Source: an uncultured Bacteroidota bacterium
GTDB lineage: Bacteria; Bacteroidota; Bacteroidia; Bacteroidales; F082
Assembly: GCA_900542475.1 (NCBI GenBank)
Contig: UQNO01000002.1
Location: 64,486-128,485 of the forward strand
Direction of reading: 5' to 3'
Length of the DNA stretch: 64,000 nucleotides
The position numbers were made by a program, and so were the translations under genes. A model generated the notes under the pieces. It was not told the DNA's origin, did no database searches, and saw only the letters and a program-made list of their open reading frames with translations. Shown here one piece after another: positions 11,334-64,000 of the stretch. Each line of letters starts with the position of its first letter. Position 1 is the stretch's first letter.

Positions 11334-11338
11334 GCCTT

Positions 11339-29126: not shown

Positions 29127-31331
29127 TTGATGAAGATTCAATATAACACAGAGAGCAAGGTAGAGGAGTATTTCAAAGGATTCGATTCGTTGTTCGCTGA
29201 AAACGAGCGTTGTTGCCGCACCACGACTTTGGTGACCGACAACTACATCGTTCTCGGGCAGCTCACGGCCTTGCGTTTCATCGAGTGGGTGTCGCTCAAC
29301 CCCGGAGGGGTGGTGGCATTGCCTACCGGCAAGACCCCCGAGTTCTTCATCAAGTGGCTGGAGTATTATCGCGACAACTGGGAACGCGAGAGCCAGACCG
29401 GGCTGATAGGCAAGTTAGGCATTCAGAAACCCGACTTCAGCTCTCTGCATTTCTTTCAGTTAGACGAGTTTTTCCCCATCAATCCGGAACACGAGCGCTC
29501 GTTCCGCTACTTTGTGAAGAAATATTACATTGACGTCTTGGGTTTCGACCAGCAGAAGACACACCTTATAAACACCTGGTATCTCAACGAGTGGGAGCAG
29601 CAGTTGTTAGACGGCGCTAAAAACATGGGTGAGATATTCACTGACGGGAAGGTGGATTTGTCGTTGCGCACTCGCATGGCGCTGAACAAACAAGAGGAGT
29701 TGAAGCAATGTGCCATTCGTATGTTCGACGAGTGGTGCATGCGTTATGAAAGCAAGATACGCTCTTTGGGCGGCATAGGGTTTTTCCTGGGCGGCATTGG
29801 TCCTGACGGACACATAGCGTTCAATGTGCGTGGCAGCAGCCCGTTCTCGCATACGCGCCTGACCACCCTCAACTATGAGAGCCAGGCAGCCGCGGCGGGC
29901 GACTTGGGTGGTATCACCGCAGTGAGGAAAAAGGCTGTAGTGACTATGGGTTTGGAAACCATCACTTTCAATCCTGATTGCGTGGCGGTCATCATTGCCG
30001 CCGGTCAGTCGAAGGCCAAAGTGGTGGCAGGCTCGGTAAACAGTTTGCCCACACAACACTATCCGGCGACCTGTTTGCAAAGTTTGCCCAATGCGCGGTT
30101 CTTCATCACGCGTGCCTCGGCGGTGGAGCTGCCTTCGGTGAAGAACAGCCTGCACACCTTGTCTGTCGATGCGGTGAAAGGCAAAATAGACAAGGGCCTG
30201 CGGATGCCGCAAGATGCTGTTATCCTGCACACCTCGCCCCATCACGACGATGTCGAGTTGGCGTATTTCCCGTATCTGCACCATTTAGTTCGTTCAAAGA
30301 GCATTCAAAACCATTTCGCCTATTGTACCAATGGCTACACCTCGGTCACGAGTGAGTACCTGTTGAGTGTATATCGCAATTTGCTTCGCCGCATCGAGCC
30401 GAGCGAAGCCGCTCTCCGGCAGGAAAGCCTGGCATCTGTGTTTACGACAACATATCAAGAAGACCTGACGCATTATTTACGCGGCATCGCCAGCCTCAAA
30501 GAATCCATACAGCACTATGCTGTGGCCCGTCGTATGGCTCGCAAATGGATGTCAGAGAGAGACTTCGAGTCGTTGCAAGAGCTGAGGGCGTTTGTCGAGG
30601 GCGAGGTTCAATGTTTGGAGACCCTTGAACTGGGTCGTCGCGAGCCGGAGACATTCCATACAGCCAAAGGCTGGCTGCGCGAGATGGAAGCCGAGTTGGT
30701 GTGGGCGCATTTCGGCATCGGCAGCGACCGCGTGAGTCATCTGCGCCTGCCGTTTTATAGCGACGATATATTTCCCCACTATCCCGACATGGATAATGAT
30801 GTGAAGCCCATCGTAAATCTTTTGGAGCGGGTGAAACCCACCATAGTTTCCCTGGCTCTCGACCCGGAGGGCAGCGGTCCCGACACGCATTTCAAGACCC
30901 TTATCGCCATCGGCGCCGCATTAGAGCAATATCACGCCGCACACCCTGATATTGACCTTCACGTGTGGGGCTATCGTAATGTCTGGTCGCGTTGGCTGAT
31001 GAGCGAGGTAAACACCATGATACCGGTGTCGCTAAACAGTTTTGCCGTTATTCGCAATATGTTCGACACCTGCTACCTCAGTCAGCGCGGAGCCGAGTTC
31101 CCAAGTTATGAGCACGACGGCCCGTTTAGCGAGTTGGCACAAAAGGTTTGGGTGGAGCAGTTCGACGATGTGTGCAACCTGTTGGGCGAAGGCTATTTCT
31201 ATCGAGGCAACGACCCGATGCTCAAACGAGCGTACGGAATGATATATCTTAAGGATATGAAGTATGATGAGTTTGTGAAATATATGAAACCGGTGCAAAA
31301 GCTGTTGGACACAAAGGCGGCAATGCGTTAA
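29127..31331 (+). CDS. Glucosamine-6-phosphate deaminase-like (NagB fold) fused to a PIG-L/LmbE-like deacetylase domain
   Basis: N-terminal ALPTGKTP and GIGPDGHIAFN NagB motifs. C-terminal SPHHDDVEL resembles the PIG-L AHPDDE zinc motif. Confidence 0.65.
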   Translation: MMKIQYNTESKVEEYFKGFDSLFAENERCCRTTTLVTDNYIVLGQLTALRFIEWVSLNPGGVVALPTGKTPEFFIKWLEYYRDNWERESQTGLIGKLGIQKPDFSSLHFFQLDEFFPINPEHERSFRYFVKKYYIDVLGFDQQKTHLINTWYLNEWEQQLLDGAKNMGEIFTDGKVDLSLRTRMALNKQEELKQCAIRMFDEWCMRYESKIRSLGGIGFFLGGIGPDGHIAFNVRGSSPFSHTRLTTLNYESQAAAAGDLGGITAVRKKAVVTMGLETITFNPDCVAVIIAAGQSKAKVVAGSVNSLPTQHYPATCLQSLPNARFFITRASAVELPSVKNSLHTLSVDAVKGKIDKGLRMPQDAVILHTSPHHDDVELAYFPYLHHLVRSKSIQNHFAYCTNGYTSVTSEYLLSVYRNLLRRIEPSEAALRQESLASVFTTTYQEDLTHYLRGIASLKESIQHYAVARRMARKWMSERDFESLQELRAFVEGEVQCLETLELGRREPETFHTAKGWLREMEAELVWAHFGIGSDRVSHLRLPFYSDDIFPHYPDMDNDVKPIVNLLERVKPTIVSLALDPEGSGPDTHFKTLIAIGAALEQYHAAHPDIDLHVWGYRNVWSRWLMSEVNTMIPVSLNSFAVIRNMFDTCYLSQRGAEFPSYEHDGPFSELAQKVWVEQFDDVCNLLGEGYFYRGNDPMLKRAYGMIYLKDMKYDEFVKYMKPVQKLLDTKAAMR

Positions 31332-39210: not shown

Positions 39211-40461
39211 ATGAATGCTTTATTAAGATTTACAATAGAAAATTTCCGTTCTTTTGCTGAGCGGAAATCTCTAGTTTTAAGCCATGCGCCATTAAACGAG
39301 AATAGCACATCGCTGCCTTTTTTGAGGGTTTGTGCTTTGTATGGTGCTAATTCTAGTGGAAAAAGTAATTTGGTTAATGCCTTAGCAAGGATGAGATATA
39401 TCATTCTGAATTCTGTTAAGGTTAATGATGGTGAAGATTTAGAATATGAACCTTTTTTGTTAAGTGATAAGAAAAATGAGCCGACGCTTTATGAATTAGA
39501 ATTTGTTTTGTCAGACAAACATTATAGATATGGTTTTTCGAACGATTCTAAAAGGATAGTGCAAGAATGGCTATATTGCATTAATCCTAACAGTTTAGAA
39601 ATCCCTCTTTTTATTCGTGATCAAGAAGATATTGGTGTAAGTGAGAAGGATTTTCCAGAAGGAGTAGATATGGAAGAGAGAACAAATGATAATCGTCTTT
39701 TCTTATCTCTTGTTGCTCAGTTAGGTGGCTCTTTGTCTAAAAAGATTATTAGTTTTTTCTCTAAGTCTATCAATATCCTTTCTGGACTAGAAACTGATGA
39801 TTATCTGACGTTTTCTGCTCGAATGCTTAAGGAGGAAAAGACCGTTGCATCGTTGATGAAGAACTTCTTTAATAGAGTGCAATTAGGTTTTTCTGATTTA
39901 ACAACACGCACACAAGACTTTGACGCTAAATCTCTTCCTCATGATATGCCTGAAGAATTAAAGAATTTACTTGTCTCTAATTTAACAGGGAAAAAAAGTG
40001 TTTCTATATTTTCTGTTCACGGATGTTATGATTCTGAAGGAAAAGTTTTAGAAAATCGATCTTTTCCTTTTGATAAGATGGAGTCTGAAGGTACCAAAAA
40101 ACTGTTTGAGATTTCAGGTCCAATCTTTGATACTTTATTAGAAGGGAAAATTCTGTTTGTTGACGAACTTGATGCAAAAATGCATCCTCTCTTATCTCGA
40201 GAATTAGTTAGATTGTTTACCGATGAATCTACAAATTCCAAGGGGGCTCAATTGATTTTTACCACTCATGATACAAATCTTCTTTCATCTAATCTTTTGA
40301 ATAGTAATGAAGTTTGGTTTACAGAAAAAGACCAACAAGAACGTTCTGATCTTTATTGCTTGAATGATATTAGGTACTTGGATGGAAGCAGGATGGAAGA
40401 GACTGAATTGATGGAACATAATTACATTCAGGGGCGTTATGGTGCAATACCATATTTGTAG
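39211..40461 (+). CDS. AAA-family ATPase (AAA15/OLD-like, RloA-type partner of RloB)
   Basis: Walker A GANSSGKSN and a C-terminal ATPase lid (LFVDELDAKMHP). The ATG lies 3 nt after the degT stop. Confidence 0.7.
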   Translation: MNALLRFTIENFRSFAERKSLVLSHAPLNENSTSLPFLRVCALYGANSSGKSNLVNALARMRYIILNSVKVNDGEDLEYEPFLLSDKKNEPTLYELEFVLSDKHYRYGFSNDSKRIVQEWLYCINPNSLEIPLFIRDQEDIGVSEKDFPEGVDMEERTNDNRLFLSLVAQLGGSLSKKIISFFSKSINILSGLETDDYLTFSARMLKEEKTVASLMKNFFNRVQLGFSDLTTRTQDFDAKSLPHDMPEELKNLLVSNLTGKKSVSIFSVHGCYDSEGKVLENRSFPFDKMESEGTKKLFEISGPIFDTLLEGKILFVDELDAKMHPLLSRELVRLFTDESTNSKGAQLIFTTHDTNLLSSNLLNSNEVWFTEKDQQERSDLYCLNDIRYLDGSRMEETELMEHNYIQGRYGAIPYL

Positions 40462-40472
40462 AAATATGTGAT

Positions 40473-41222
40473 ATGGCGAAGAAAAAGAATATAACAGAAA
40501 TGAAATATCTTTCTGTTTTCAATCAAAATGAAGATCAAACAAATGCGCATAAAGTAAAGTGTCGAGTGCTCATAGTTTGTGAAGGATTAAAAACAGAACC
40601 AAATTATTTTAAATCGTTTCATATGATGGAAAATAGTGGCGGTTTGGTTTTTGAGATAACTAGTGCGGGTGGTGGTATTAATACTATTCAAGTTGTTCAA
40701 AAGGCGATAGAATTGCGTGATAAAGCTGTTTGTGATAAAAAGCCATACGATGTTACTTGGGCTGTGTTTGATAGAGACAGTTTTGCTGCTGCTGATTTTG
40801 ATAATGCTATACATATGGCAGATTCAAATGACATACGTTGTGCTTGAAGTAATGAGGCTTTTGAATTGTGGTATATTTATCATTTTGAAAACAGAATAAC
40901 GCCAATGTCTCGTAAGGAATATGCGCATAAGATAACAACCTTAGTTCAAGAAAAACAGAAATTAAAAGCAGGTAAAAAGTCTACTTTCGTTTATAAAAAA
41001 AATGATCCGGAAATGCGATCAATTTTGCTTGGTTGTGGCTGTAATGAACAACGAGCTATTCGTTGGGCTAAAGAACAAAGTGAGTCTTTCGATGCGCAAG
41101 ATTATCATTCACATAATCCTTGTACAAAGGTTTATGAACTTGTCGAACTTTTGCTTGGAGAAGACAAAGTTTTTAATGAGAAAATTAGAGCAATAATGAC
41201 TAAAAGAGGATGTAAGCAATGA
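40473..41222 (+). pseudogene. RloB-like protein interrupted by a single in-frame TGA (TGG to TGA at the conserved W of the AWSN motif)
   Basis: Two same-frame ORFs (40473-40847 and 40866-41222). The junction reads IRCA*SNEAFELWYIYHFE, against the RloB consensus IxxAWSNPCFELWLLLHFE. Confidence 0.6.
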
Positions 41223-52606: not shown

Positions 52607-53770
52607 ATGTTCAAGAGATTCATCAATAAGTTTTTCACATTAGAGAAAGGTTTCTATCAGAAATCGGTTGACTGCTACTTTGATAGAGATATAGAGAAAG
52701 ATATTGGGTTTTTCCAAAGGCTTCACCCCCGAAACGATTTTAGCCGAAGTATCGCCCAGCATAAATGTCAGACCTATCACTGCAAGAAGAATGTGTTCTT
52801 GCTGAACTGCATGGCTGTTTTTATGACACCTGTTGTTCTGTTAATGTTAATCATGAAGAAGCGACCACTTGTAGTGGATGACCGAACAACAGTGGTTTGC
52901 TATAAATGTTTTAATACACCTGGTTCTTTGCCTTTGGCCTTGTCAGACAAAAACATCAGTTACATTAGCAGCAGTGTTGATACCCCCTCGTTTTTAAGAA
53001 AGGCTGACATCCCTTTTCTTTTTAGATTCTTCTTTAGGAGCTTCTTTCATTCATTCTTGTCTTTTAGAGTAATGTTGAAAGTGGCCAAATACAGGGCTAT
53101 TCTTGATTCTTTCAGCCATTTGGAGGCCATTGCAATAACAGGCGAGTTCACGGATACCTCGTCGGTCATGACCCAGTATTGTCACGAGAGGGGCATCAAG
53201 CACTATAATTTTATGCAAGGGGAGGCGTTCGGTTCTCCGCGAGTGTCTTTCTTCCGTTTCGATAAATGCTTTGTCTGGGATCAGCATTATGTGGATATGT
53301 TTACCTCATTAGGAGCTCCTTCTGAACAGTTTGTAGTCTCACTCCCACGGTGCCTACAGAAAATTAAAAACGACGGACTTGAAAAGACGATTGACTATAC
53401 CTATTATTTGGGAGGAGATGCCGACGAAGAACTGTCCGTTATCAAAAAAGCATTAGATACCCTTGTTTCCAAAGGATATGTATGTGAAGTAAGACCGCAC
53501 CCAAAATGGTCTAATATGGAAACCATAAGGAAAGAGTTTTGCGGTATCTCAATACAAGATGCCACTGCTGTTAACATAGACAAGTCTATTTTGCAGACCA
53601 AAAACGCCATCAGTCTTTATTCCACCGTTTTGCTACAGGCTTTCTTCAACGACGTGAACGTAGTAATTGATGATCTGTCAAGTCCCGATAAATACAATAT
53701 GCTTGAAAAGTATCAATACATCATGTTAGACAAACCCCATGAATTATTGTCTGAAATAACGAACAATTGA
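52607..53770 (+). CDS. Hypothetical protein; candidate unassigned transferase, possibly the nonulosonic-acid transferase
   Basis: 387-aa soluble ORF in the operon with no recognisable GT signature. It is the only unassigned enzyme-sized gene beside the NulO genes. Confidence 0.4.
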   Translation: MFKRFINKFFTLEKGFYQKSVDCYFDRDIEKDIGFFQRLHPRNDFSRSIAQHKCQTYHCKKNVFLLNCMAVFMTPVVLLMLIMKKRPLVVDDRTTVVCYKCFNTPGSLPLALSDKNISYISSSVDTPSFLRKADIPFLFRFFFRSFFHSFLSFRVMLKVAKYRAILDSFSHLEAIAITGEFTDTSSVMTQYCHERGIKHYNFMQGEAFGSPRVSFFRFDKCFVWDQHYVDMFTSLGAPSEQFVVSLPRCLQKIKNDGLEKTIDYTYYLGGDADEELSVIKKALDTLVSKGYVCEVRPHPKWSNMETIRKEFCGISIQDATAVNIDKSILQTKNAISLYSTVLLQAFFNDVNVVIDDLSSPDKYNMLEKYQYIMLDKPHELLSEITNN

Positions 53771-54429
53771 AACAATTAAATATGAGAGATGTAGCAATAT
53801 ATGGTGCAGGCGGCTTTGGCCGCGAGGTGGCCTGCATTTTGGAGAAGATTAACGAGGTTGAACCCACCTGGAACTTGGTTGGCTTCTTTGATGATACCCC
53901 AGACCTAAAAGGTCAGATGATTTCACACTATGCACCTTGTTTGGGCGGAATCAACGAACTGAATGCCTACGACAAAGAGATAGGTGTGGCCGTCGCCATC
54001 GGGAGTCCCAAGACGGTGGAGAAAATGGTGGGCAACATCACCAACCCTAATGTCTGGTTCCCCAACATCATCCATCCCAACTTCGTAATCGCTGATGAAA
54101 AGACCTTTACCATTGGCAAAGGCAATATCATTCAATGCGACTGCAAGGTGAGTTGTGATGTGACTATAGGCGACTTCAATGTGTTGAACGGAAATACCGC
54201 TATGGGACATGATGTGAATGTGGGTTCGTATAATGTGTTTATGCCCTCCGCACGTATATCCGGCCAGACCAGGATGGGGGACAAGAATTTCTTCGGTGTT
54301 GGATGCATCGTACTGCAACAGATGAAGATTGGTAACGAGATAAGGCTTGGTGCAGGCAGTGTACTGATGACCAAACCCAAAGATGGATTTCTCTATATGG
54401 GAAACCCCGCAAAGAAGACCGTATTATAA
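53767..54429 (+). CDS. Hexapeptide-repeat sugar O/N-acyltransferase (NeuD/PglD family)
   Basis: VAIYGAGGFGREV N-terminus and hexapeptide repeats. Confidence 0.8.
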   Translation: MKQLNMRDVAIYGAGGFGREVACILEKINEVEPTWNLVGFFDDTPDLKGQMISHYAPCLGGINELNAYDKEIGVAVAIGSPKTVEKMVGNITNPNVWFPNIIHPNFVIADEKTFTIGKGNIIQCDCKVSCDVTIGDFNVLNGNTAMGHDVNVGSYNVFMPSARISGQTRMGDKNFFGVGCIVLQQMKIGNEIRLGAGSVLMTKPKDGFLYMGNPAKKTVL

Positions 54430-54450
54430 ATTTTAAAATAGAAATGTGTT

Positions 54451-54681
54451 ATGGAAATTAAAGAGTTTATCCAGAATTTTGCAGATCAGTTTGAAGATAC
54501 TGATGCCAGTGTGTTTGCCCCTGAGACCGTGTTCCATGATTTGGACGAGTGGAGTTCGCTGGTGGGTCTGTCACTCATTGCTATGATTGATGACGAATAT
54601 GATGTGACCATCAAGGGCGACGAACTGAGAGCCTCCAAGACTATCAACGATGTGTTTGAACTGGTAAAGAGCAAGAAGTAA
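54451..54681 (+). CDS. Acyl carrier protein-like (76 aa)
   Basis: Small acidic protein with a DEWSSLVGLSLI putative phosphopantetheine-attachment serine. Confidence 0.65.
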   Translation: MEIKEFIQNFADQFEDTDASVFAPETVFHDLDEWSSLVGLSLIAMIDDEYDVTIKGDELRASKTINDVFELVKSKK

Positions 54682-55436
54682 TGTACAATCCGTTTACCCT
54701 TGAGGGAAAAACCATCCTTGTGACCGGTGCCGGCGGCGGCATCGGTCGCGCAACGGCTACCACGTGTAGCAAAATGGGAGCAACGCTAGTCGTGACAGAC
54801 ATCAATGCAGAAACACTGCCTGAAACACTCTCGCTGCTGGAAACAGAAGGTAAGCGCAAACACCTGATGTTTACTGCGGACCTAACCAACGACGAGGCGT
54901 TGGACAAGATGGTGGCTGAAATGCCTCTGCTTGATGGCATTGTTTGCAATGCGGGTATCTCCAAAGTGTTGCCCATTCAGTTCTTGAATGCAGATGACAT
55001 GAATCGTATCATGGCCATCAACGCCCTTGCGCCCATGTATATGACGCAGCGCCTCTACAAGAAGAAGCGCATCAACAAAGGTGGTTCCATTGTCTTTACA
55101 ACTTCCATCAGTGGTGTGAGCATGGTTTCAATGGGCGGCGTGATGTATGCTGTCTCGAAAAATGCCTTGGATGCCTTTATGCGCAATGCCGCCTTGGAGT
55201 TTGCAGCCCGCAATATCCGCGTGAACAGCGTGAATCCCAGCCGTGTGAAGACACCTCTTCTTCAGAACAGCGTCTATTCTGAAGAAGAGGTTGCCAAGGA
55301 TATGCAGACCTATCCGTTAAAACGCTATGCAGAACCGGAAGAAATAGCCAACTGCATGGTGTTCTTGCTTTCTGATGCCTCTTCGTATATCACTGGCCAT
55401 GCACTAATTGTGGATGGTGGAAAAACATTGAATTAA
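54681..55436 (+). CDS. SDR oxidoreductase (FabG-like 3-oxoacyl-ACP reductase)
   Basis: TGAGGGIG motif and a YxxxK dyad. Confidence 0.85.
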   Translation: MYNPFTLEGKTILVTGAGGGIGRATATTCSKMGATLVVTDINAETLPETLSLLETEGKRKHLMFTADLTNDEALDKMVAEMPLLDGIVCNAGISKVLPIQFLNADDMNRIMAINALAPMYMTQRLYKKKRINKGGSIVFTTSISGVSMVSMGGVMYAVSKNALDAFMRNAALEFAARNIRVNSVNPSRVKTPLLQNSVYSEEEVAKDMQTYPLKRYAEPEEIANCMVFLLSDASSYITGHALIVDGGKTLN

Positions 55437-55440
55437 TTAT

Positions 55441-56166
55441 ATGAACGTAATTATCACCGGCAGCAATCGTGGTATAGGCAAAGCCATGGTGGAAGCCTTT
55501 GCGGCATCAGGAGCCAATATTTGGGCTTGTACCCGTAAATCGACGCCTGAACATGAAACTTGGCTGAAAGAAACAGCAAACAAAGCCAACGTTTGGATTA
55601 AGCCCGTCTATTTTGAATTGACGGATAAAGATGCGATCAACAACGGTATACAGTCAATTATTGATGAAGGTCAGAGCATAGATATACTGGTGAACAATGC
55701 AGGTGTTTCCACGGTCGGACTATTAAGTATGAGCAAGGTGGAAGACATTGAAAACCTCTTTGCCGTGAACTACTTTGCCATGCTTCGCATCATCCAGAAG
55801 GTTTCTAAACGGATGGCACGACAGAAGAAAGGCGTAATCATCAATATGGGTTCCATTGCCGGTATTGAACCGCAAGCAGGAAAGATAGCCTACGGTAGCA
55901 GCAAGGCTGCGATTATACTGATGACACAATGCTTGGCCAAAGAACTTGGTCCTATGGGAATCCGTGTGAATGCCATTGCACCGGGACCCATTGAAACGGA
56001 AATGATACATCAGTACAATGATGAGATGTTAACTAAACTTGCTGCTGAATCAGCATTACGTCGTTTGGGCAAAAAAGAGGAAATAGCACAGGTGGCGGTG
56101 TTCTTGGCATCTGAACAGGCTTCATACATCAATGGCGAAATAATTAAAGTTGACGGAGGAAGGTGA
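55441..56166 (+). CDS. SDR oxidoreductase (FabG-like), second copy
   Basis: TGSNRGIG motif and a YxxxK dyad. Confidence 0.85.
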   Translation: MNVIITGSNRGIGKAMVEAFAASGANIWACTRKSTPEHETWLKETANKANVWIKPVYFELTDKDAINNGIQSIIDEGQSIDILVNNAGVSTVGLLSMSKVEDIENLFAVNYFAMLRIIQKVSKRMARQKKGVIINMGSIAGIEPQAGKIAYGSSKAAIILMTQCLAKELGPMGIRVNAIAPGPIETEMIHQYNDEMLTKLAAESALRRLGKKEEIAQVAVFLASEQASYINGEIIKVDGGR

Positions 56167-56189
56167 ATCGAATTGATAATTGATAATTT

Positions 56190-57017
56190 ATGAATAGACG
56201 AATATTATCAGAGGAAGAAATAAAGTCAATGTGCAAACGCATGAGGCTTCATGCGATGGATATGGCATTGGCAGCTGGTAGCCGTGGCGCACACGTGAGC
56301 GGCAGTTTGTCGTGCATGGAAATCTATGCGGTGCTTTACGGTGCTATCCTGAATTATGATATTGACAACCCTTTGTGGAACGACCGTGACCGCTTCATTG
56401 CCGGTAAGGAACATGCCCGTTTGGCAGAATATCCGGCTCGTGCAGAGATGGGTTTTTATCCTGTGGAAGTGCTGAACACCTACGAGGAGAATGACGGTCT
56501 GCTGGTGGGTCACCAGTTAAAGAAAGAACTGGGTGCGGAGTATGGTTCCATGAGCTTGGGTATGGAGATGTCGTTTGCCGTGGGTAAGGCTCTTATCGCC
56601 AAGCAGACTGACCAGAAGTATCATGTGTATTGCCTGCTGGGTGATGCAGAGTGTGAGGAGGGTCCTGTATGGGAGGCCTTTATTGCCGCTGCTCATTACA
56701 ATCTGGATAATCTGACGGTGATTATTGACCGTAACCGCATGTCGGTGGATGGCAACACAGAGGAGTTGATGGCGCTGTGCGATATGCGGAAAAAAATGGA
56801 AGCCTTTGGCTTTGAATCTGTCACCGTAGATGGTCACGACATCCATCAGTTGAGGGAAGCCTTGAAGCATAAACCAGAGGGGCTGCCATACGCAGTGATA
56901 GCAGAGACAACTAAAGGCAAGGGGGTGTCATTTGTTGAAAACAATAAGTCTTGGCATCAAGCGGTATTGAATGAAAAGCAATACCATGAGGCCGTGGAAG
57001 AAATACAAAACAGTTAG
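56190..57017 (+). CDS. Transketolase, N-terminal (ThDP-binding) subunit of a split transketolase
   Basis: GHVSGSLSCMEIY...GDAECEEG ThDP motif. Confidence 0.85.
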   Translation: MNRRILSEEEIKSMCKRMRLHAMDMALAAGSRGAHVSGSLSCMEIYAVLYGAILNYDIDNPLWNDRDRFIAGKEHARLAEYPARAEMGFYPVEVLNTYEENDGLLVGHQLKKELGAEYGSMSLGMEMSFAVGKALIAKQTDQKYHVYCLLGDAECEEGPVWEAFIAAAHYNLDNLTVIIDRNRMSVDGNTEELMALCDMRKKMEAFGFESVTVDGHDIHQLREALKHKPEGLPYAVIAETTKGKGVSFVENNKSWHQAVLNEKQYHEAVEEIQNS

Positions 57018-57022
57018 AGAAT

Positions 57023-57997
57023 ATGGGATACAGTCCAGCATTAATAAAAGCCTACGCCCGCATGGGGCAGAAAGGCGCAGCGGCCGGAATTGGCATGATG
57101 GAATTAGCCAAGAGTGACCCTGATATGCGGGTGGTTGTGGCTGACAGTGTGGCCATTGCCAGTCTGGACCGCTTCTATACCAACTATCCGAATCAAGTGG
57201 TTAATGCCGGTATCTCTGAGCAGAGCATGATTGGCATTGCCGCCGGTTTGTCATCAGAAGACGGACGAGCAGTGTATGCTTGTACATACGCCGCTTTTGT
57301 GTTAGTAAAAGCCATTGAGTTTGTAAGGCACAATTTAGCATATCACCAGTTCAATGTGAAAATAGTGGGTAATTCCGCAGGATTTGCCATGGAAACCCTT
57401 TCTATATCCCATTGGGCGACGGAAGACATAGCCATGGCCAGAGCACTGCCCAACATGACCATCCTTTCTGCTGCTGACAGTCTGGAGGCTATCAAGATGG
57501 TGAAAGCAGCCCACGACGTGAAAGGCCCCGTGTATGTACGCCTTTCAGGCTTGTTGAACTGCCCCGTTGTGTACTCCAACGACTTTGACTACCAGATTGG
57601 CAAAGCCAACAAATTGCGAGACGGGGATGGAGTTACTATTATAGCAACTGGTATGATGGTGCGTGAATCCTTGGATGCCGCAGAACTTCTTGCTGCCAAA
57701 GGCATCAATGCCCGCGTGGTGGATATGCATACTATCAAGCCGCTTGATACAGTATGTATAGATAAGGCTATGGCAGACTCCAAATTGCTGGTTTCAGTAG
57801 AGGAGCATAGCATTATTGGCGGTTTAGGTGGCGCTATTGCAGAGTATCTGTCTGAAAGAGAGAACACGGCCAGACTGGTACGCATAGGTGTTGGTGATTT
57901 TTATGGAAAATTAGGCGACCTGCGCTACTGCTGGGAACAGCACGGCTTGACAGCCCCGCAGATTGCAAATAGAATAGAAAAAGAGTTAAAAAAATAA
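57023..57997 (+). CDS. Transketolase, C-terminal (pyrimidine-binding) subunit
   Basis: Full-length similarity to TK C-terminal subunits. Confidence 0.85.
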   Translation: MGYSPALIKAYARMGQKGAAAGIGMMELAKSDPDMRVVVADSVAIASLDRFYTNYPNQVVNAGISEQSMIGIAAGLSSEDGRAVYACTYAAFVLVKAIEFVRHNLAYHQFNVKIVGNSAGFAMETLSISHWATEDIAMARALPNMTILSAADSLEAIKMVKAAHDVKGPVYVRLSGLLNCPVVYSNDFDYQIGKANKLRDGDGVTIIATGMMVRESLDAAELLAAKGINARVVDMHTIKPLDTVCIDKAMADSKLLVSVEEHSIIGGLGGAIAEYLSERENTARLVRIGVGDFYGKLGDLRYCWEQHGLTAPQIANRIEKELKK

Positions 57998-58011
57998 AAA
58001 TCTATAAGAAA

Positions 58012-58248
58012 ATGAATAACATTGATAAATTAAAAGAAGCATTTGTCGAAGGTCTTGAAATTCCCATTGAAGAAGTTGAAACTGCTACCATGGAAAGTGT
58101 AGATAAGTGGGACAGCATTGGTCAGATGAGCCTGATTGCCATTATTGAAGAGGTCTTTAGTATTGAGTTTGAGCCTGATGAGGTAATGCAGTTCACTTCT
58201 TTCGAGACTGGTAAAGAGATACTGAAAAACCACGGAATTGAGATGTAA
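58012..58248 (+). CDS. Acyl carrier protein (78 aa)
   Basis: DKWDSIGQMSLI phosphopantetheine site (DSx). Confidence 0.75.
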   Translation: MNNIDKLKEAFVEGLEIPIEEVETATMESVDKWDSIGQMSLIAIIEEVFSIEFEPDEVMQFTSFETGKEILKNHGIEM

Positions 58249-59674
58249 GACCACAAATTATACGAAATATTTGATGCTGTTTGATATTGATAAGAAGCCT
58301 GCGTCGGCGGTGGCTGCCGTTGATGATGCGGGTGGTCAGTTGACATACGGAGAAATAGTTTATCTTCGCAGTGAACTATCTACCATATTGCCGGAACGTG
58401 AGTTGGTGTTTTGTCTGTGCGAAAACCGAGTAGGGGCATTGGCTGGTTTCCTGTCGTTGTATGACTGCAAGGACGTGTGTCTGTTGCTTAATGCGCATAT
58501 TGACAAGGCATTGTTGAAGAAGCTGGATGAAACTTACAAACCGTCCTATTACTGGATGCCGGAGGCTATAGCTGGGGCGAGCAGTTATGATAAAGTGTAT
58601 GACTACAAAGGCTATGTGCTGTGCAAGACTGGTAAGAAAGCCCCTGCAATGCACACCGACCTATCTATGTTGATGACCACTTCCGGAACCACGGGAAGTC
58701 CGAAACTGGTGCGTCACAAGTATGGCAACATAGAGAGCAACGCCAAAAATGTAGCTAAAGTGTTTGGTTGGACCCCAGAAGAAAGAGGTATAGTTGACCT
58801 GCCCATGCAATACACTATGGGACTGAATGTCATTAACAGCCACCTCTTCGCCGGTGCCACCGTATTGTTGATCGAGGTGAATTTGATGAGTCCTAAATAC
58901 TGGACTTTCATCAAGGAGCAGAAAGGAACCAACTTCACAGGCGTGCCGTTCAGCTATGAAATCCTGAATCGTCTGCGTTTCTGGAAGATGGATTTGCCGC
59001 ATCTGACCACGATGGCAGAAGGTGGTGGCAAGCTGTCTGATACGCTTTTCAAGACTTTTGCAGATTATGCCGTGAATAACAGTAAACGGTTCTTTGCTAC
59101 TTTTGGCACTACAGAAACCTCGGCTCGTTTGGCATTCCTGCCACCCGAGCAGGCTGCAACTCATATTGGCAGTATTGGTCACGCCATTCCTGAGGGAAAA
59201 ATCATTTTGGTGGATGAAAACGACAACGAAATCACCGAACCAGATGTGGAAGGCGAACTTCGCTATGAAGGTCCAAATGTCACGATGGGTTACGGGACCT
59301 GCGTGGAAGACCTGTCCAAGGGCGATGAGTTCTGTGGCGTATATGAAACTGGCGACTTGGCCAAGAAAGATGCAGATGGATTCTTCTATATCGTTGGCCG
59401 CAAGAAACGTTTCTTGAAACTCTTTGGACTCCGTGTAAGCCTGGATCAGAGCGAAAAGATTATCTCCGAGAACTTTGGCGGCATGGAATGCGCCTGCACG
59501 GGTGATGACAATCAGATGTTGATTTACATCACACAAAAGGATTTGAAGGAGGACGTTAAAAAACTGATTTCCGAAAAAACAGGTTTAATGACCAAGTTCT
59601 TTGATGTAAAAGAGATAGAAGTAATCCCGAGATTGGAATCGGGGAAGATTAATTACAAGAAATTAGGAAAATAA
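58238..59674 (+). CDS. Adenylate-forming acyl-CoA/acyl-ACP ligase (AMP-binding family)
   Basis: AMP-binding motif MTTSGTTGSPK plus YETGD. Confidence 0.8.
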   Translation: MRCKTTNYTKYLMLFDIDKKPASAVAAVDDAGGQLTYGEIVYLRSELSTILPERELVFCLCENRVGALAGFLSLYDCKDVCLLLNAHIDKALLKKLDETYKPSYYWMPEAIAGASSYDKVYDYKGYVLCKTGKKAPAMHTDLSMLMTTSGTTGSPKLVRHKYGNIESNAKNVAKVFGWTPEERGIVDLPMQYTMGLNVINSHLFAGATVLLIEVNLMSPKYWTFIKEQKGTNFTGVPFSYEILNRLRFWKMDLPHLTTMAEGGGKLSDTLFKTFADYAVNNSKRFFATFGTTETSARLAFLPPEQAATHIGSIGHAIPEGKIILVDENDNEITEPDVEGELRYEGPNVTMGYGTCVEDLSKGDEFCGVYETGDLAKKDADGFFYIVGRKKRFLKLFGLRVSLDQSEKIISENFGGMECACTGDDNQMLIYITQKDLKEDVKKLISEKTGLMTKFFDVKEIEVIPRLESGKINYKKLGK

Positions 59675-59675
59675 C

Positions 59676-60731
59676 ATGGCTTTTTTTAAAATTGAGAATG
59701 TAAAGATAAGTGGTATTTCCGCCTGTGTGCCGCCCAAAAGGGTGGATAATATGGAGTCTGACCTTGTTGAGGACAAGCATGAGATGGAGAAATACATAGA
59801 GACTACTGGTGTAAGATACAGGTATGTGGCAGAAGATGGTATTTGCTCTTCTGACCTCTGCAAGCAGGCAGCTGACAAGCTGATTGAAGAGATGGAAATA
59901 GACAAGTCAGAGATTGGTTGCCTGATTATGGTGACACAGACCCCTGACTATATTTTCCCTGCAACAGCTTGTATTCTGCAAGATCGTCTGGGTTTGCCAT
60001 CGGACTGTATGAGTTTTGATATTACTATGAGCTGTCCAGGATGGATCTATGGCTTGTCCGTGATGTCATCTATTCTCAGTGCAGGCAAGGTAAAGAAAGG
60101 TTTGCTGCTGGTTGGCGAAACATCTACCAAAGCCAAGTCTCCTTATGACCGCGTGAACTTGTTGGCCGGTGATGCAGGTACGGCTACCATATTGGAGTAT
60201 CAGGAAGGTGCAAGTCCCCTGTTGTTTAGTATGCATACGGACGGAAGCAATTACCGCTCGCTTATTATCCCTGATGGTGGTTACAGGAATCCTGTTACAC
60301 TTCAATCTTTTGAGTATTATGAGTGTAAGGATGGTATAAAGCGTAATCGCTTGAATGCCAATATGGAAGGAGAGGATATTCTTTCATTTGCCATGCATAC
60401 GGCCCCTAAATGCATCAAGGGTTTGCTGGAGCATTTTGAGTTGCCCAAGGAAGAAATTGACTACTTTTTGATACATCAAGCCAACCAAATGATTAACAAG
60501 TTAATCCAAAAAAGGTTAAAGGTTGATGAAACTCATTGTCCGTATAATATCCACGACTTTGGTAATACATCTTCAACATCAATTCCGCTGATGATTGTGA
60601 ACAAATTGCGTGAAAAAATTGGTGGAAAGAAGATTGTGGCTTGTGGATTTGGTACTGGATTGGCTTGGGGAGCGATGTGTACGGACATTTCGAATGATTG
60701 TAAGGTAGTTAAATTAAAGAAATATAATTGA
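59676..60731 (+). CDS. 3-oxoacyl-ACP synthase III (FabH-like KAS III)
   Basis: Cys-His-Asn architecture (SCPGW ... HQAN ... GNTSS). Confidence 0.85.
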   Translation: MAFFKIENVKISGISACVPPKRVDNMESDLVEDKHEMEKYIETTGVRYRYVAEDGICSSDLCKQAADKLIEEMEIDKSEIGCLIMVTQTPDYIFPATACILQDRLGLPSDCMSFDITMSCPGWIYGLSVMSSILSAGKVKKGLLLVGETSTKAKSPYDRVNLLAGDAGTATILEYQEGASPLLFSMHTDGSNYRSLIIPDGGYRNPVTLQSFEYYECKDGIKRNRLNANMEGEDILSFAMHTAPKCIKGLLEHFELPKEEIDYFLIHQANQMINKLIQKRLKVDETHCPYNIHDFGNTSSTSIPLMIVNKLREKIGGKKIVACGFGTGLAWGAMCTDISNDCKVVKLKKYN

Positions 60732-61402
60732 AATTAAGCAATATGTCTTCAATAAAGAAAAAATTAAAAGATAATAGTTTTATCAATTCTATCTACTGGA
60801 AGTATATATATTGTCCAGCGGTATTACAAGCGGATTTGTCAGAACTTATGCCAGTTGCTGACAACTTTAATGGTTGCAGTGTAAAAGAATTAACCATTAA
60901 TAGCCCGATGTTTGATAAGTATCTCGCTTTCATAAATGCTATGTATGAAGAGAAAATATATACGAAAAAAGAACTAATACAACTTTTGTCCAATCATTAT
61001 TGGTTAAGAGACGTAAAGACATATGTGCTAATCAATAAGTCTAATCAGATTGTTTCAACAATCTCAACGGGGAAATATAAAAATAACGAAAAACAGGGCG
61101 GTGTGTTTAAATTTGCCACAGATAAGAATAAAAGAAAGCAGGGGTTTGGATTGTATATGTTGCGTTATGGTTATGGCAGACTAAAAACAGACGGATGCTC
61201 TTATGGCGAATCAATAGTGTCATTTAGGAAGAATAGAATACCATCATTGATGACGCATTTTAAATGTGGTTTTATTCCTCAAATGGATAGAAAACTTGTT
61301 GTGTATGAATTAGTTAACAAGAGGGGGGGGGTAAAACATTGGTTTACAAGAAACTGGGTAATGAAGTATTATCAACTATATTTAAGAAAACATTATAAGT
61401 AA
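60728..61402 (+). CDS. GNAT-like hypothetical protein containing a G9 homopolymer tract in its coding sequence
   Basis: QGFGLYML acetyl-CoA-binding-like motif. The G9 tract at 61323-61331 encodes KRGGV. Confidence 0.5.
   Translation: MKLSNMSSIKKKLKDNSFINSIYWKYIYCPAVLQADLSELMPVADNFNGCSVKELTINSPMFDKYLAFINAMYEEKIYTKKELIQLLSNHYWLRDVKTYVLINKSNQIVSTISTGKYKNNEKQGGVFKFATDKNKRKQGFGLYMLRYGYGRLKTDGCSYGESIVSFRKNRIPSLMTHFKCGFIPQMDRKLVVYELVNKRGGVKHWFTRNWVMKYYQLYLRKHYK
61323..61331. repeat. G9 homopolymer tract inside the coding sequence
   Basis: Seen directly: AGAGGGGGGGGGTAAAAC. Confidence 0.9.
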
Positions 61403-61406
61403 TATT

Positions 61407-62477
61407 ATGAAAGTATCTGTTCTGGGCGCTGGCAACGGCGGTCAGGCTATTGCAGGATGGCTTGCAATGCAAGGTTATTCTGTCAGTCTTTATGGCAGAA
61501 ATGAAAAAACTATATTAGAACTTGATGCAAAAAAAAGTATAGAATTTTCCGGAATGATCACTGGGAAAGGGATTCTCGCTAATGTTACAACTAATATGCA
61601 ACGATCAATTGCTGATGCTGATGTCATAATGGTGGTAACTACGGCCAATGCTCATGGTTCAATTGCTCGGCAGATTGCGGGTGATTTAAAAAATGGTCAA
61701 ATAATTATACTTAACCCTGGTCGTACTGGTGGTGCACTAGAGTTTAAACAGGCGTTAGAATCTGCTGGTTGCAAAGCAAGAGTGTATGTTGCAGAGGCAC
61801 AGACGTTGATATATGCCTGTCGTTTGATGAAAAATGGTTTAGTTAATATCATCGGTGTAAAGGATAAGGTTTTGCTTTCGGCACTGCCTTCTTCTGATAC
61901 GGAATATGTTCTTTCCAAAATAACACCTGTTTTTCCCTGTTTTTGTCCAGCAGAAAACGTATTACAAACTTCATTAGAGAACATAGGTGCAATGTTCCAT
62001 CCATGTGTACTATTGTTCAATGCTGCTACCGTAGAACGAAATTCCATGTTTTGGTTCTACCGAGATATGACTCCCAAGATAGCTGACTTTATTGAAAAAT
62101 TTGATAGCGAACGTTTGGCAGTAGGTAAGTCATACGGAATCGACCTTCTTGGTGTGAGCGAATGGATTAGTTATGCATATCCTGGCACAATAGGTGATAC
62201 TCTTTGTGAAAAGATGAAAAATAACCCGGCATATCACGACATCAAATCTCCTTCAACTATTTTTACTCGTCAGTTGACGGAAGACATACCTACTGGTGTT
62301 CTTCCCATTATGGAATTGGGTGAAGTGGCGGGTGTGCCAGTGCCATTGTTGCATTCTATGGTTGCAATTTGTGGAAATTTACTGGATATTGATTTCCGCC
62401 AGAAAGGACGTACACTTAAGCATTTGGGGTTGGCTGGAAAAACAAAAGAAGAAATAATAGATTATCTGTCGCGATGA
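61407..62477 (+). CDS. Opine dehydrogenase-like NAD(P) oxidoreductase (NAD_Gly3P_dh_N plus Octopine_DH-type fold)
   Basis: N-terminal VSVLGAGNGGQA Rossmann motif and an overall opine/ketopantoate-reductase-like layout. Confidence 0.6.
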   Translation: MKVSVLGAGNGGQAIAGWLAMQGYSVSLYGRNEKTILELDAKKSIEFSGMITGKGILANVTTNMQRSIADADVIMVVTTANAHGSIARQIAGDLKNGQIIILNPGRTGGALEFKQALESAGCKARVYVAEAQTLIYACRLMKNGLVNIIGVKDKVLLSALPSSDTEYVLSKITPVFPCFCPAENVLQTSLENIGAMFHPCVLLFNAATVERNSMFWFYRDMTPKIADFIEKFDSERLAVGKSYGIDLLGVSEWISYAYPGTIGDTLCEKMKNNPAYHDIKSPSTIFTRQLTEDIPTGVLPIMELGEVAGVPVPLLHSMVAICGNLLDIDFRQKGRTLKHLGLAGKTKEEIIDYLSR

Positions 62478-64000
62478 AAGAGAAAGCAAGAAGCATGGAC
62501 GTATTTGGATTTATTAAACCGTTGGTGGATGTTCACACAATGGGAGTGTTCACTATTGCAAACCTGTTGATGGACTGCGGATACAAAGTGTATGTGTCAA
62601 AGGATGATGTGAACGAGGCTGTACAAGACCTACGGAAGTTCAATAACTATGGTCTTGTAAAACGCTGGATATTGGATAAGCAAATCAACCGTTTAGGATT
62701 TAGCTATAGGTTGGATCCCGTGGAAGGGTGTAACTATTTCATGTCATTGTATGAGCGTCTTGAACAAGACGATATGTTTGCCAAAGACGGTGGCCCTTTA
62801 ACTCAAATATTCTTTGCAGGTTTGCCGGATACATGTGATCGGGTGAAAGGAAAGACAAATGGAGAAGTACTGGTGTTTCCAGGAAACGAAACACCAATTG
62901 AGTCTCTCAAGATGCTGAACGTTCCAGATAAATGTCTGTCAGGAACACTTATTGAGGATAATGCCTACGATAAGATGCGTTGGAATTTTGCCAAAGAACT
63001 TATTGAGAGTGAACGCTGGCGTTTAGCGTCCTACCAGGATCATTATGGTTACAAAACATGTGGTACAAAGAATGATAAGTTCGTAGACCGTTTAAACTAT
63101 GCGGTGGAGAAACATTCGCTGCCTATAATCCGTACGCATTCTGGCCCGTATAATCCTAACAGATTGGAGGCATTGAAAGAATATAATTCATGGATTAAGG
63201 ATTTGGCACAGTCAAAATTGTTGGATGTGCTTTCTATTGGTAGTTCTCAATTAACGCAGTCTCACTTTGGAGAGGATTGGAAAGATCTTCCTAATGGAGG
63301 TGGTGTGCCTGTTAATTCAGAAATGGAGTACAACATTATTCGCGACAATGCCTCTCCTATGCTTGTCCGTACTTATTCAGGCACTAAGAATGTACCTGAT
63401 TTGGCTAAAATACATGAACGTTCGCTGAATATATCTTGGCATGCATTGTCTTTTTGGTGGTTTAATGAAATAGATGGTCGTGGCAGTAATACACTCTTGG
63501 AAAATCTTAGAGAGCATTTTGAAACGGTAAAATATGCAGCATCCTCTGATAAGCCAGTGGAACCTAATGTGCCGCACCATTTTGCTTTCCGTGGTGCAGA
63601 TGACATTACCTATATAATTTCCGGGTATCTTGCAGCCAAGGCTTGCAAGAAGATGGGCTTGAAGCATTTGATACTCCAGAATATGCTCAATACACCTAAA
63701 TACACTTGGGGTGTTGAAGATCTGGCCAAAGGGCGAGCCATGATAAAAATAGTACGCTCGTTGGAAAATGCAAACTTCAAGGTAAGCCTTCAGAGTCGTG
63801 CTGGTTTGGATTACTTTGCACCTAACTTGGAGTATGCCAAAATTCAATTGGCGGCTGTGACTTGTATGATGGATGATCTTGATCCTGGCAATGATAATAG
63901 CCCTGAGATTGTTCATGTTGTGAACTATTCAGAGGCGGTTCGTTTAGCAACACCACCAGTCATTAAGGATAGTATCAAGATAACACTTTCTGCATTACAT
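62474..64000 (+). CDS. Cobalamin(B12)-binding-domain protein with a large C-terminal domain; 3' end outside the window
   Basis: Hand-translated open frame from an ATG overlapping the upstream stop (ATGA). No stop occurs before 64000. The N-terminal DVHTMGVF matches the DxHxxG B12-binding signature. Confidence 0.55.
   Translation, partial: MKEKARSMDVFGFIKPLVDVHTMGVFTIANLLMDCGYKVYVSKDDVNEAVQDLRKFNNYGLVKRWILDKQINRLGFSYRLDPVEGCNYFMSLYERLEQDDMFAKDGGPLTQIFFAGLPDTCDRVKGKTNGEVLVFPGNETPIESLKMLNVPDKCLSGTLIEDNAYDKMRWNFAKELIESERWRLASYQDHYGYKTCGTKNDKFVDRLNYAVEKHSLPIIRTHSGPYNPNRLEALKEYNSWIKDLAQSKLLDVLSIGSSQLTQSHFGEDWKDLPNGGGVPVNSEMEYNIIRDNASPMLVRTYSGTKNVPDLAKIHERSLNISWHALSFWWFNEIDGRGSNTLLENLREHFETVKYAASSDKPVEPNVPHHFAFRGADDITYIISGYLAAKACKKMGLKHLILQNMLNTPKYTWGVEDLAKGRAMIKIVRSLENANFKVSLQSRAGLDYFAPNLEYAKIQLAAVTCMMDDLDPGNDNSPEIVHVVNYSEAVRLATPPVIKDSIKITLSALH

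Follow-up and report, generated by a model that had tools for sequence, protein, structure and literature searches.

Two probable glycan-tailoring modules in a Bacteroidales capsule locus: an acyl cassette around an altered transketolase, and an opine dehydrogenase paired with a predicted B12-type isomerase

What would bring a split transketolase, two acyl carrier proteins (ACPs), an opine dehydrogenase and a protein with a B12-type motif together in one capsule locus? The question is raised by the genes from position 53767 onwards in the window, i.e. the whole stretch of 64,000 nucleotides analysed here (contig UQNO01000002.1, forward-strand positions 64,486 to 128,485, assembly GCA_900542475.1), which stems from an uncultured bacterium of the Bacteroidales lineage F082 and whose end lies within a Bacteroidales capsule locus of gut or rumen origin. 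An original prediction had read these genes as an acyl-tailoring cluster at the end of that locus, acting together on one sugar. Every gene that it listed was found, intact and in place on the + strand, by a list of open reading frames (ORFs) and Pfam scans, with intergenic gaps of -11 to +23 bp and with all catalytic motifs intact. Our comparison of related loci points to a different organisation, namely two independent glycan-tailoring modules within one long capsule operon, and we put the probability of this explanation as a whole, comprising the modularity and the models for both modules, at roughly 60%. Gene identities, modularity, gene order, the altered transketolase site and the mutase-like fold are results of the analysis; substrates, sequence of reactions and products are inferred.

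Two gene sets that occur independently

Module A (53767-60731) consists of the gene for a PglD-like acyltransferase followed by the cassette ACP1-SDR1-SDR2-TKN-TKC-ACP2-ligase-FabH, in which SDR1 and SDR2 are short-chain dehydrogenases/reductases (SDRs) and TKN and TKC are the two subunits of the split transketolase. Module B extends from 60728 to approximately 5.7 kb past the window end and comprises the genes for a GNAT-like protein, the opine dehydrogenase (OpDH), the B12-motif protein (U621), an ATP-grasp ligase, a 136-residue protein (U136) and a deacetylase. The window holds the first 509 of the 621 residues of U621 (62474-64000, running off the end). The extension that the original prediction had called for was provided by the metagenomic contig L001, which is 99.5% identical over the last 6.7 kb, completes U621 and continues the locus for at least 10 kb past the window. 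Here, U621 is followed by an ATP-grasp ligase, the 136-residue protein, a polysaccharide deacetylase, an initiating Bac_transf, a 649-residue protein, a metallo-beta-lactamase-fold protein (MBL) and a DegT aminotransferase, which places the genes in the middle of the capsule locus and not at its end.

Related loci (numbered with the prefix L) were gathered via U621 and via TKC and were compared by tblastn. Locus L022 has the order GT4-Wzy-unk386-PglD-like-ACP1-SDR1-SDR2-TKN-TKC-ACP2-ligase-FabH and then continues directly with Bac_transf, U649 and MBL, which is the order of the window and L001 minus the six genes GNAT-OpDH-U621-ATPgrasp-U136-deacetylase. The cassette, in turn, was absent from the loci found through U621, and the GNAT-like, OpDH and U621 genes travelled together and were absent from 45 of the 46 other cassette loci. 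Because L022 carries the cassette without module B and the U621 loci lack the cassette, the genes form two modules and not one pathway, and the single joint pathway of the original prediction was ruled out. The only other locus with both modules was L041 (found through the transketolase), which repeats the combined order at 63-80% identity. The GC content of the cassette (0.456) and of the PglD-like gene (0.466) lies well above that of the genes before (0.379) and after (0.389) and of the GNAT-like gene (0.316), a contrast in keeping with horizontal transfer of the cassette among capsule loci.

The boundary between the modules also settles the place of the GNAT-like gene (60728-61402), which had been put forward as a possible transferase of the acyl cassette. 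The ORF is present as predicted, but its GNAT call is weak, resting on a sub-threshold match to Acetyltransf_1 (E 0.0063; 17.2 bits, cut-off 20.7) with no NCBIfam match. The one locus found with a homologue (68% identity) was L041, which also has OpDH, U621 and the ATP-grasp ligase. Because the gene occurs only together with OpDH and U621, we assigned it to module B, and its proposed role in the cassette was rejected.

The acyl cassette and its transketolase-like enzyme

In the metagenome scan, the identity of TKC homologues was bimodal, with 46 loci at 75-93%, 36 loci at 31-43% and none between. Among the high-identity loci with enough sequence on both sides, the five-gene core SDR2-TKN-TKC-ACP2-ligase was found in 29 of 32. 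FabH, together with ACP1 and SDR1, was present in 19 of 28 cassette loci, while all three were missing in the other nine (9/28); these counts led us to distinguish an invariant five-gene core from an optional three-gene extension (ACP1, SDR1 and FabH). The identities in L013, where ACP1 and SDR1 are 47-51% identical to those of the window and the genes from SDR2 through FabH 72-85%, fit this division. ACP2 was always placed between TKC and the ligase in the loci compared. One of the few breaks in the core order was seen in L057, where ACP2 and the ligase are separated by a 100-residue fragment resembling the metallo-beta-lactamase-fold protein (11222-11524). The 36 low-identity loci hold ordinary split transketolases, and an ACP, ligase or FabH neighbour was found in none of them. 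Judged by these identities, the transketolase of the cassette is a clade distinct from the ordinary split enzymes, to which it is at most 43% identical; a grouping of its subunits with housekeeping split transketolases, which the original prediction had named as an outcome that would speak against it, was not seen.

TKN (275 residues; 56190-57017; Transketolase_N, 3e-30) is the N-terminal subunit that binds thiamine diphosphate (ThDP), and TKC (324 residues; 57023-57997; Transket_pyr and Transketolase_C) combines the Pyr and C domains. Both are true transketolase homologues, as their best PDB matches were the split transketolase of Carboxydothermus hydrogenoformans (TKN, 4e-57 to 6yak; TKC, 2e-63 to 6yaj) and then human transketolase (6e-34 for TKC). 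The ThDP motif GDA...N is kept at TKN 151, the four catalytic histidines (AH, KEH, GH and SWH) align with those of the 6yak enzyme, and TKC keeps the cofactor-activating glutamate (SEQ at 65) and SHW at 129, with a histidine at the position of human Gln428; both histidines that hold the C1 hydroxyl of the donor are likewise retained. The substrate pocket, on the other hand, is altered, as the KST, H and GEDG segments of TKC and the arginine of TSR/GR are substituted by AIA, S, METL and G/L. In alignments to 6yaj and human transketolase, the positions of human R318, S345, H416, R474 and D424 are occupied by G/K, I, S, G/L and L; we take the first four of these, from what is known of transketolases, to bind the substrate phosphate and D424 to bind a sugar hydroxyl. 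The substituted pattern was identical across 120 close homologues. As far as the alignments tell, the sugar-phosphate pocket is replaced by apolar residues and the usual substrate tail is presumably not recognised in the usual way, although fructose-6-phosphate or xylulose-5-phosphate may still serve as donor.

The two ACPs are 76-78 residues long. ACP1 (54451-54681; serine motif WSSL) matched PP-binding at an E value of 1e-3, just under the Pfam cut-off, and ACP2 (58012-58248; DSI motif) did so at 1.4e-5. Of the two SDRs that had been called FabG-like, SDR2 (55441-56166; adh_short_C2, 7e-56) clearly is, since its top 17 PDB matches, and 27 of the first 28, were FabG 3-oxoacyl-ACP reductases (best 3e-43, with MupS at 4e-34). 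SDR1 (54681-55436; adh_short_C2, 5e-55; TGxxxGIG and YxxxK motifs) found secondary-alcohol dehydrogenases as its best PDB matches and FabG at 1e-30. It looks like a generic classical SDR and is predicted to be the ketoreductase of the extension step; SDR1 and ACP1 co-occur with FabH, and ACP1 was seen only in variants with both SDR1 and FabH. The adenylate-forming ligase (58238-59674; AMP-binding, 2e-36) has complete adenylation motifs (TSGTTGSPK, GRKKRFLK and SGKI). Its best PDB match was oxalate-CoA ligase (4e-23), followed by FadD5, MenE and malonyl-CoA synthetase, and its best NCBIfam match was an exosortase-associated ligase; its predicted role is to charge ACP2 with a small carboxylic acid. 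The FabH-like 3-ketoacyl-ACP synthase (KAS) III (59676-60731; ACP_syn_III and ACP_syn_III_C) retains the Cys-His-Asn triad as SCPG, HQAN and GNTS. The PglD/NeuD-like left-handed beta-helix N-acyltransferase (53767-54429) was borne out by matches to PglD_N (2e-12) and Hexapep and is the predicted transferase for the acyl-ACP product of the cassette.

The neighbourhood of the cassette points to amino sugars as acceptors. Nonulosonate, DegT or PglD-type genes were found in 23 of the 26 cassette loci with at least 8 kb of upstream sequence. The core directly follows PseB, PseC, PseF, a PseH-like GNAT and NeuB in L024 and L050, and PseB, PseC, PseF and NeuB lie near it in L057 (BLAST only). It comes after DegT and a PglD-like acyltransferase in L062, after DegT and a GNAT-type (PseH-like) acyltransferase in L038, and after Antibiotic_NAT and DUF4910 in L013. 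The PglD-like gene abuts the cassette in the window, L015, L022 and L062; in the window it overlaps the upstream gene by 4 bp, and in L015 and L022 it occupies the same position and is 83-86% identical. A dedicated ACP, ketosynthase (KS) and ketoreductase (KR) beside a PglD-type acyltransferase and amino-sugar genes, as in the window, recur in L015, L022, L029, L042 and others. Directly upstream of the PglD-like gene and cassette, the window encodes a 387-residue protein (52607-53770) with no Pfam or NCBIfam match, of which L015 and L022 carry homologues of 66-68% identity in the same place. This protein contains the stretch RPHPKW, reminiscent of the HP motif of bacterial sialyltransferases, and may be a candidate transferase for the acylated nonulosonate or sugar.

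In the established pathways, the 4-amino nitrogen of the nucleotide-sugar precursor becomes N7 of legionaminic acid (Leg) or pseudaminic acid (Pse). Among possible purposes of the cassette, the N-acylation of such a 4-amino sugar nucleotide has the most support, and the earlier suggestion that a precursor of a legionaminic-type nonulosonate is N-acylated is plausible, given that an N-acyltransferase and Leg/Pse or DegT genes adjoin the cassette in those 23 of 26 loci. Its gene set also supports the view of the original prediction that this is a dedicated tailoring system rather than ordinary fatty-acid synthesis. Module A is probably a portable type-II synthase in miniature, in which a short acyl chain with hydroxyl groups is assembled on the carrier proteins, and we consider it reasonably likely that the acyl-ACP so formed serves N-acylation.

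As a working model, which we think rather unlikely to be correct in its specific chemistry, the ligase would load a small acid onto ACP2 and the transketolase-like ThDP enzyme would transfer a two-carbon ketol unit to a partner without a phosphate, which may be tethered to the ACP. This role is proposed because the ThDP enzyme is the sole C-C bond former in the core and its sugar-phosphate pocket appears apolar. The core has no ketosynthase, yet it has the 3-oxoacyl-ACP-type reductase SDR2, also where FabH is missing; the FabG-like SDR2 would reduce the resulting 3-oxo group. In the extended variant found in the window, FabH would condense the starter with malonyl-ACP1 and SDR1 would reduce the new keto group, giving a 3-hydroxyacyl-ACP1 longer by two carbons. 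The PglD-like enzyme would then move the acyl group to the 4-amino group of the nucleotide-sugar precursor, later N7 of a legionaminic-type nonulosonate. Speculatively, if ACP2 carries glyoxylyl or another C2 acid of this sort, addition of the ketol unit would yield 2,4-dihydroxy-3-oxobutanoyl-ACP, reduction of which would give trihydroxybutanoyl and extension tetrahydroxyhexanoyl. Alternatively, the transketolase product could be loaded onto ACP2 after the reaction, leading to the same 2-hydroxy-3-oxoacyl-ACP, which is a FabG-type substrate.

Precedents exist for parts of this logic, while no description of the combination of transketolase, ACP and capsule was found in the literature. In Flavobacterium psychrophilum, the wfpC-wfpG genes, which encode KAS, ACP, KR and a PglD homologue, are predicted to form the N-3,5-dihydroxyhexanoyl group of the amino sugar Qui2NAc4N (PMC6519341). 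By description, both this system and module A lie in polysaccharide loci of Bacteroidota, and each has its own ACP together with 3-ketoacyl-ACP synthase(s), a 3-ketoacyl-ACP reductase and a PglD homologue, the last of these being predicted to acylate the 4-amino group of a nucleotide sugar. The wfp system lacks a transketolase-like enzyme, an adenylating ligase and a second ACP, and its starter is presumably acetyl; the invariant core of the present cassette, unlike wfpC-G, contains no KAS. In mupirocin biosynthesis, MupQ (adenylation), MacpD (ACP) and MupS (SDR) make a hydroxyacyl starter that MmpF (KS), MacpA/B (second ACP) and MupD (KR) extend to 3,5-dihydroxypentanoyl-ACP (PMC10098928). 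The two-stage logic is alike, i.e. a hydroxyacyl starter followed by KS, a second malonyl-ACP and KR to a product longer by two carbons, and the E value of SDR2 to MupS given above belongs to the same comparison. However, mupirocin is a polyketide antibiotic made without a ThDP enzyme, its KS belongs to a KS-acyltransferase didomain and is not FabH-like, and its product is esterified instead of N-linked to a sugar. What sets module A apart from both systems is a central transketolase descendant with a rebuilt substrate pocket.

Several points weigh against this model of module A. The role given to the transketolase is argued by elimination and from lost residues; no precedent for a ThDP enzyme acting on a carrier-tethered aldehyde was found in the literature, and no product, isolate or polysaccharide structure was found linked to any locus of this type. 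The likeness of the ligase to oxalate and malonate ligases is weak, its 4e-23 lying close to the values for FadD5 and MenE. In some loci, NeuB is missing within 10 kb of the core, and the acceptor could be a 4-amino-6-deoxyhexose that is never converted to a nonulosonate.

An alternative explanation, which keeps the chemistry and the joint pathway of the original prediction, is that the split transketolase takes a dihydroxyethyl unit from a ketose phosphate and passes it to the stand-alone ACP. The resulting glycolyl group may be extended by FabH and the reductases and would be installed on legionaminic acid, with OpDH and the B12 protein tailoring the same group. The known route of this type, in quinocarcin (QncN/QncL/QncM) and scleric acid (SclQ1-4), uses a ThDP subunit, a Pyr/TK_C subunit, a protein with lipoyl attachment and E2 acyltransferase parts, and an ACP; the ThDP-bound C2 unit is oxidised on the lipoyl arm and transferred by the E2 domain, i.e. 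the C-terminal half of QncL or SclQ4 (PMC6335953). As there, a split ThDP/transketolase-like enzyme stands beside a stand-alone ACP of approximately 76 residues in a tailoring cluster (ACP2 begins 14 bp after TKC), and TKN, TKC and the ACP match SclQ2, SclQ3 and SclQ1 in size and domains, as compared by description. The retained histidines for the donor C1 hydroxyl also suit this explanation, and glycolyl followed by one FabH/KR round would give a chemically sensible 3,4-dihydroxybutanoyl. Furthermore, an N-glyceroyl Pse derivative and possibly an N-glycolyl Leg derivative occur in another member of the Bacteroidota, whose genes for them are unknown (PMC5378307). On the other side, Pfam found no Biotin_lipoyl or 2-oxoacid_dh domain in the cassette or within 10 kb in four contexts (including L013/14, L015-18 and L022). 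Because this lipoyl/E2 part, which supplies the oxidant and the transfer, has no counterpart although the other three parts do, the Qnc route as described cannot operate here and was rejected in that form. The Qnc/Scl systems also differ in having no ligase, FabG or FabH partners, so that a glycolyl route would leave the core-invariant ligase without a role and would not account for a FabG-type reductase that is kept without FabH. With the phosphate-binding residues lost and with OpDH and U621 genetically independent of the cassette, we regard this explanation as unlikely.

In a further alternative, the split transketolase lies in the capsule locus by chance and serves the pentose-phosphate pathway in the ordinary way, or supplies a sugar phosphate such as sedoheptulose-7-phosphate for a heptose, while the remaining enzymes make 3-hydroxybutanoyl by plain FabH/FabG chemistry. 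It could draw on the genuine split transketolase (6yak/6yaj) as best PDB match and on 3-hydroxybutanoyl being, judged by titles that PMC7685785 cites, the commonest non-acetyl N-acyl group on nonulosonic acids, but was rejected as very improbable in view of the identity gap without intermediates, the 0 of 36 ordinary loci with cassette-type neighbours, the fixed position between SDR2 and ACP2 even in the nine loci without FabH, and the replacement of all four phosphate-binding positions and of the sugar-hydroxyl aspartate.

An opine dehydrogenase and a predicted B12-type isomerase

The opine-dehydrogenase-like enzyme of the original prediction (61407-62477; Octopine_DH PF02317, 5e-37; NAD_Gly3P_dh_N) is a close homologue of the N-(1-D-carboxyethyl)-L-norvaline dehydrogenase (CENDH) of Arthrobacter (1bg6), with an E value of 3.5e-73 over 344 residues. 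The two share the two-domain layout, and the GxGxxG motif (GAGNGG in OpDH) and the HP motif are aligned; CENDH differs in having no known mutase partner or glycan role. The OpDH gene abuts the U621 gene in 9 of 11 independent contexts from several phyla, comprising Bacteroidales (the window, L007/8, L009, L019 and L041), Gracilibacteria (L010), Deltaproteobacteria (L011), a 50%-identical relative of unknown taxon (L023) and a 27%-identical pair (L102/103). The identities of OpDH and U621 to those of the window fall in step along these contexts (80/89, 65/69, 51/52, 36/47 and 20/27%).

U621 itself, which carries DVHTMG at residues 19-24, had no sequence match in Pfam, NCBIfam or the PDB (single-sequence and profile PDB searches). 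It belongs to a large and strongly conserved family, with more than 2,600 sequences scored among 8,000 candidates, of which the top 120 were at least 72% identical. In a set of 1.84 billion proteins, clustering at 50% identity gave 424 representatives of the family, none of them annotated. Its AlphaFold model (pLDDT 80, pTM 0.86) has an N-terminal five-strand alternating beta/alpha domain, with the DxHxxG motif directly after beta-1, followed by a TIM barrel, and all 16 Foldseek matches at E values of 1e-3 or less were adenosylcobalamin (AdoCbl) isomerases. Across 20 diverse relatives, DxHxxG was kept in 17, PF02310 (B12-binding) matched seven (best 1.3e-6) and PF06368 (MutE) matched one at an E value of 0.0017, while U621 did not itself fall within the Pfam MutE family. 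PF02310 also matched a member of 26% identity, whose gene likewise follows one for an Octopine_DH protein. In L007, a PduO-type Cob_adeno_trans gene (E 9e-52) lies directly downstream of U621, and L008 is a near-identical locus (89% U621 identity). These two loci also hold (7847-10004) two tandem OpDH paralogues, 80% and 75-77% identical to the window enzyme, then the mutase-like gene and then the adenosyltransferase.

From the modelled fold and the matches of its relatives, U621 is most likely a fused and very divergent AdoCbl isomerase, with the cobalamin domain first and a glutamate-mutase-E-like TIM barrel behind it, which agrees with the rearrangement chemistry suggested earlier for a B12-binding-domain protein with a DxHxxG motif. 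In terms of structure it is placed among the AdoCbl isomerases but outside any described family. Glutamate mutase keeps the two parts as GlmS and GlmE, whereas U621 fuses them in one chain and is 14% identical to GlmE; its pairing with OpDH and its place in glycan loci are also unlike the known AdoCbl isomerases, which further include ornithine 4,5- and lysine 5,6-aminomutases and methylmalonyl-CoA mutase. A PLP-dependent aminomutase was considered as well and appears unlikely, there being no invariant lysine across the family alignment.

An alternative explanation is that U621 is a corrinoid-dependent methyltransferase of the MetH/MtaBC kind, or a TIM-barrel enzyme that uses no cofactor and whose Rossmann-like domain is degenerate. 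The window U621 has no significant match to any B12 family, including the B12-binding domain, the DxHxxG loop is modelled with low confidence, and three of the 20 relatives lack the motif; these findings count against an isomerase and suit such an enzyme. A helical cap is typical of methyltransferase B12 domains, and the domain of U621 begins directly with beta-1 and DxHxxG and has no such cap. Together with the relative that matches MutE and the AdoCbl-making adenosyltransferase as the next gene in L007/L008, this leaves the alternative improbable, although the adenosyltransferase neighbour was seen in one lineage only.

The partners of the OpDH-U621 pair suggest what its product may be used for. 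ATP-grasp ligases adjoin the pair in the window/L001, L007, L009, L010 and L041, with three copies in L019, and DegT is often nearby; all contexts with an ATP-grasp ligase are polysaccharide loci with Wzx, Wzy and glycosyltransferases. In L019 (156-7011), the order is DegT, ATP-grasp, a 355-residue unknown, ATP-grasp, ATP-grasp, OpDH and the mutase-like gene, and these three ligases suggest a short peptide-like chain built on an amino sugar. In the most economical reading, which we infer from these arrangements, the pair makes a rearranged N-carboxyalkyl amino acid. The CENDH-like OpDH would form an N-(carboxyalkyl) amino compound, and U621 would perform a radical 1,2-rearrangement of an amino acid or dicarboxylic acid skeleton before or after that step, e.g. 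by a reaction of the glutamate-mutase type, with a glutamate-like opine or the not yet condensed amino acid as substrate. The ATP-grasp ligase would then link the product through an amide to an amino sugar or uronic acid, with the deacetylase and the GNAT-like protein adjusting the acceptor. A precedent for such a product exists in the O-antigens of Providencia, in which opines are amide-linked decorations (alanopine on Qui4N and N-epsilon-carboxyethyl-lysine on galacturonic acid, GalA; PMC10609480). The combination of glutamate mutase, opine dehydrogenase and ATP-grasp ligase was not found described in the literature.

Some observations do not fit this model easily. U621 occurs without OpDH in L012, with a Na:alanine symporter next door, and on the short contig L101; the ATP-grasp genes of different loci are not orthologous; and the pair is also found in non-polysaccharide contexts (L011, with an MFS_3 exporter, and L102). 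Because it occurs in these two outside glycan loci, glycan decoration is not the only role of the pair. The same loci, together with L103, where the pair stands alone as in L102, could be taken to mean that module B is an amino-acid or opine metabolic unit carried into the locus, either catabolic or making a secreted opine-type small molecule such as a metallophore. Opine-type metallophore clusters do combine an opine dehydrogenase with an MFS exporter. However, in the window/L001, L007, L009, L010, L019, L023 and L041, the pair shares strand and operon with Wzx, Wzy, glycosyltransferases, DegT and ATP-grasp genes, and the reading frames of the pair and of the glycan genes overlap or nearly abut. 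With opine substituents documented on O-antigens in addition, we hold a purely metabolic unit to be quite improbable and favour the decoration of capsule sugars by module B.

Surroundings of the modules and implications

A NusG/UpxY-like gene at 25783 opens the capsule locus, which encodes Wzx, a GT4 glycosyltransferase and Wzy as well as two UDP-sugar dehydrogenases, the latter agreeing with the model for module B. A Leg-type nonulosonate pathway is encoded upstream of the modules (Polysacc_synt_2, DegT, PglD-like, NeuB, Epimerase_2, CTP_transf_3 and CBS+NTP_transferase). Between its LegC-like aminotransferase and LegH/NeuB genes sit an AAA_21 ATPase (416 residues) and an RloB-like protein (124 residues, covering the first half of the profile only) at 39211-40847, which look like a defence or abortive-infection pair inserted in the nonulosonate operon. 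Near the start of the locus, a 734-residue protein (29127-31331) with weak matches to PIG-L de-N-acetylase and glucosamine-6-phosphate isomerase could supply a free sugar amine for re-acylation. Just upstream of the locus, a low-GC island (0.34; 20000-24000; ORFs at 20775-21362, 21677-23077 and 23130-23594) has a radical SAM/SPASM protein between small ORFs without family matches and may be a peptide-maturation unit. On the far side of the modules, the genes for the 649-residue protein and the metallo-beta-lactamase-fold protein overlap and are conserved as a pair behind Bac_transf in several of these capsule loci (L001, 10845-13399; L022, 15877-18419; also L042). The 136-, 84- and 649-residue proteins had no family match in Pfam or NCBIfam. 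A scan for promoters and terminators was uninformative, as the sigma-70 consensus is unsuited to Bacteroidota and the terminator-like matches all lay inside genes.

New families of AdoCbl isomerases are, to our knowledge, rarely found, and U621 with its constant OpDH partner offers a concrete two-enzyme system that can be tested. A broader proposal, which we put forward tentatively and with the odds against it, is that U621 founds a class of opine mutases paired with OpDH, whose branched N-carboxyalkyl amino acids would be attached to capsule sugars by ATP-grasp ligases, and that the transketolase descendant forms C-C bonds on a carrier-bound substrate. If the latter is true, carrier-bound C-C bond formation would be a reaction type not known for the transketolase family, and a transketolase without the phosphate pocket, fixed between a FabG-like reductase and an ACP, would widen the range of reactions known for the fold. 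The acyl cassette, which is widespread among Bacteroidales of the rumen and the human gut, supplies candidate genes for the making of hydroxyacyl groups carried by legionaminic and pseudaminic acids. Because the genetic basis of such groups in the Bacteroidota, e.g. of N-glyceroyl-Pse in Tannerella, has been stated to be unknown (PMC5378307), module A is a useful lead. If the proposal for U621 holds, some of the surface glycans that candidate-phylum bacteria and the Bacteroidales of gut and rumen can make would depend on vitamin B12. If module B decorates the capsule, it would link the availability of B12, a major currency of gut ecology, to the structure of surface glycans, which bear on phage and immune recognition.

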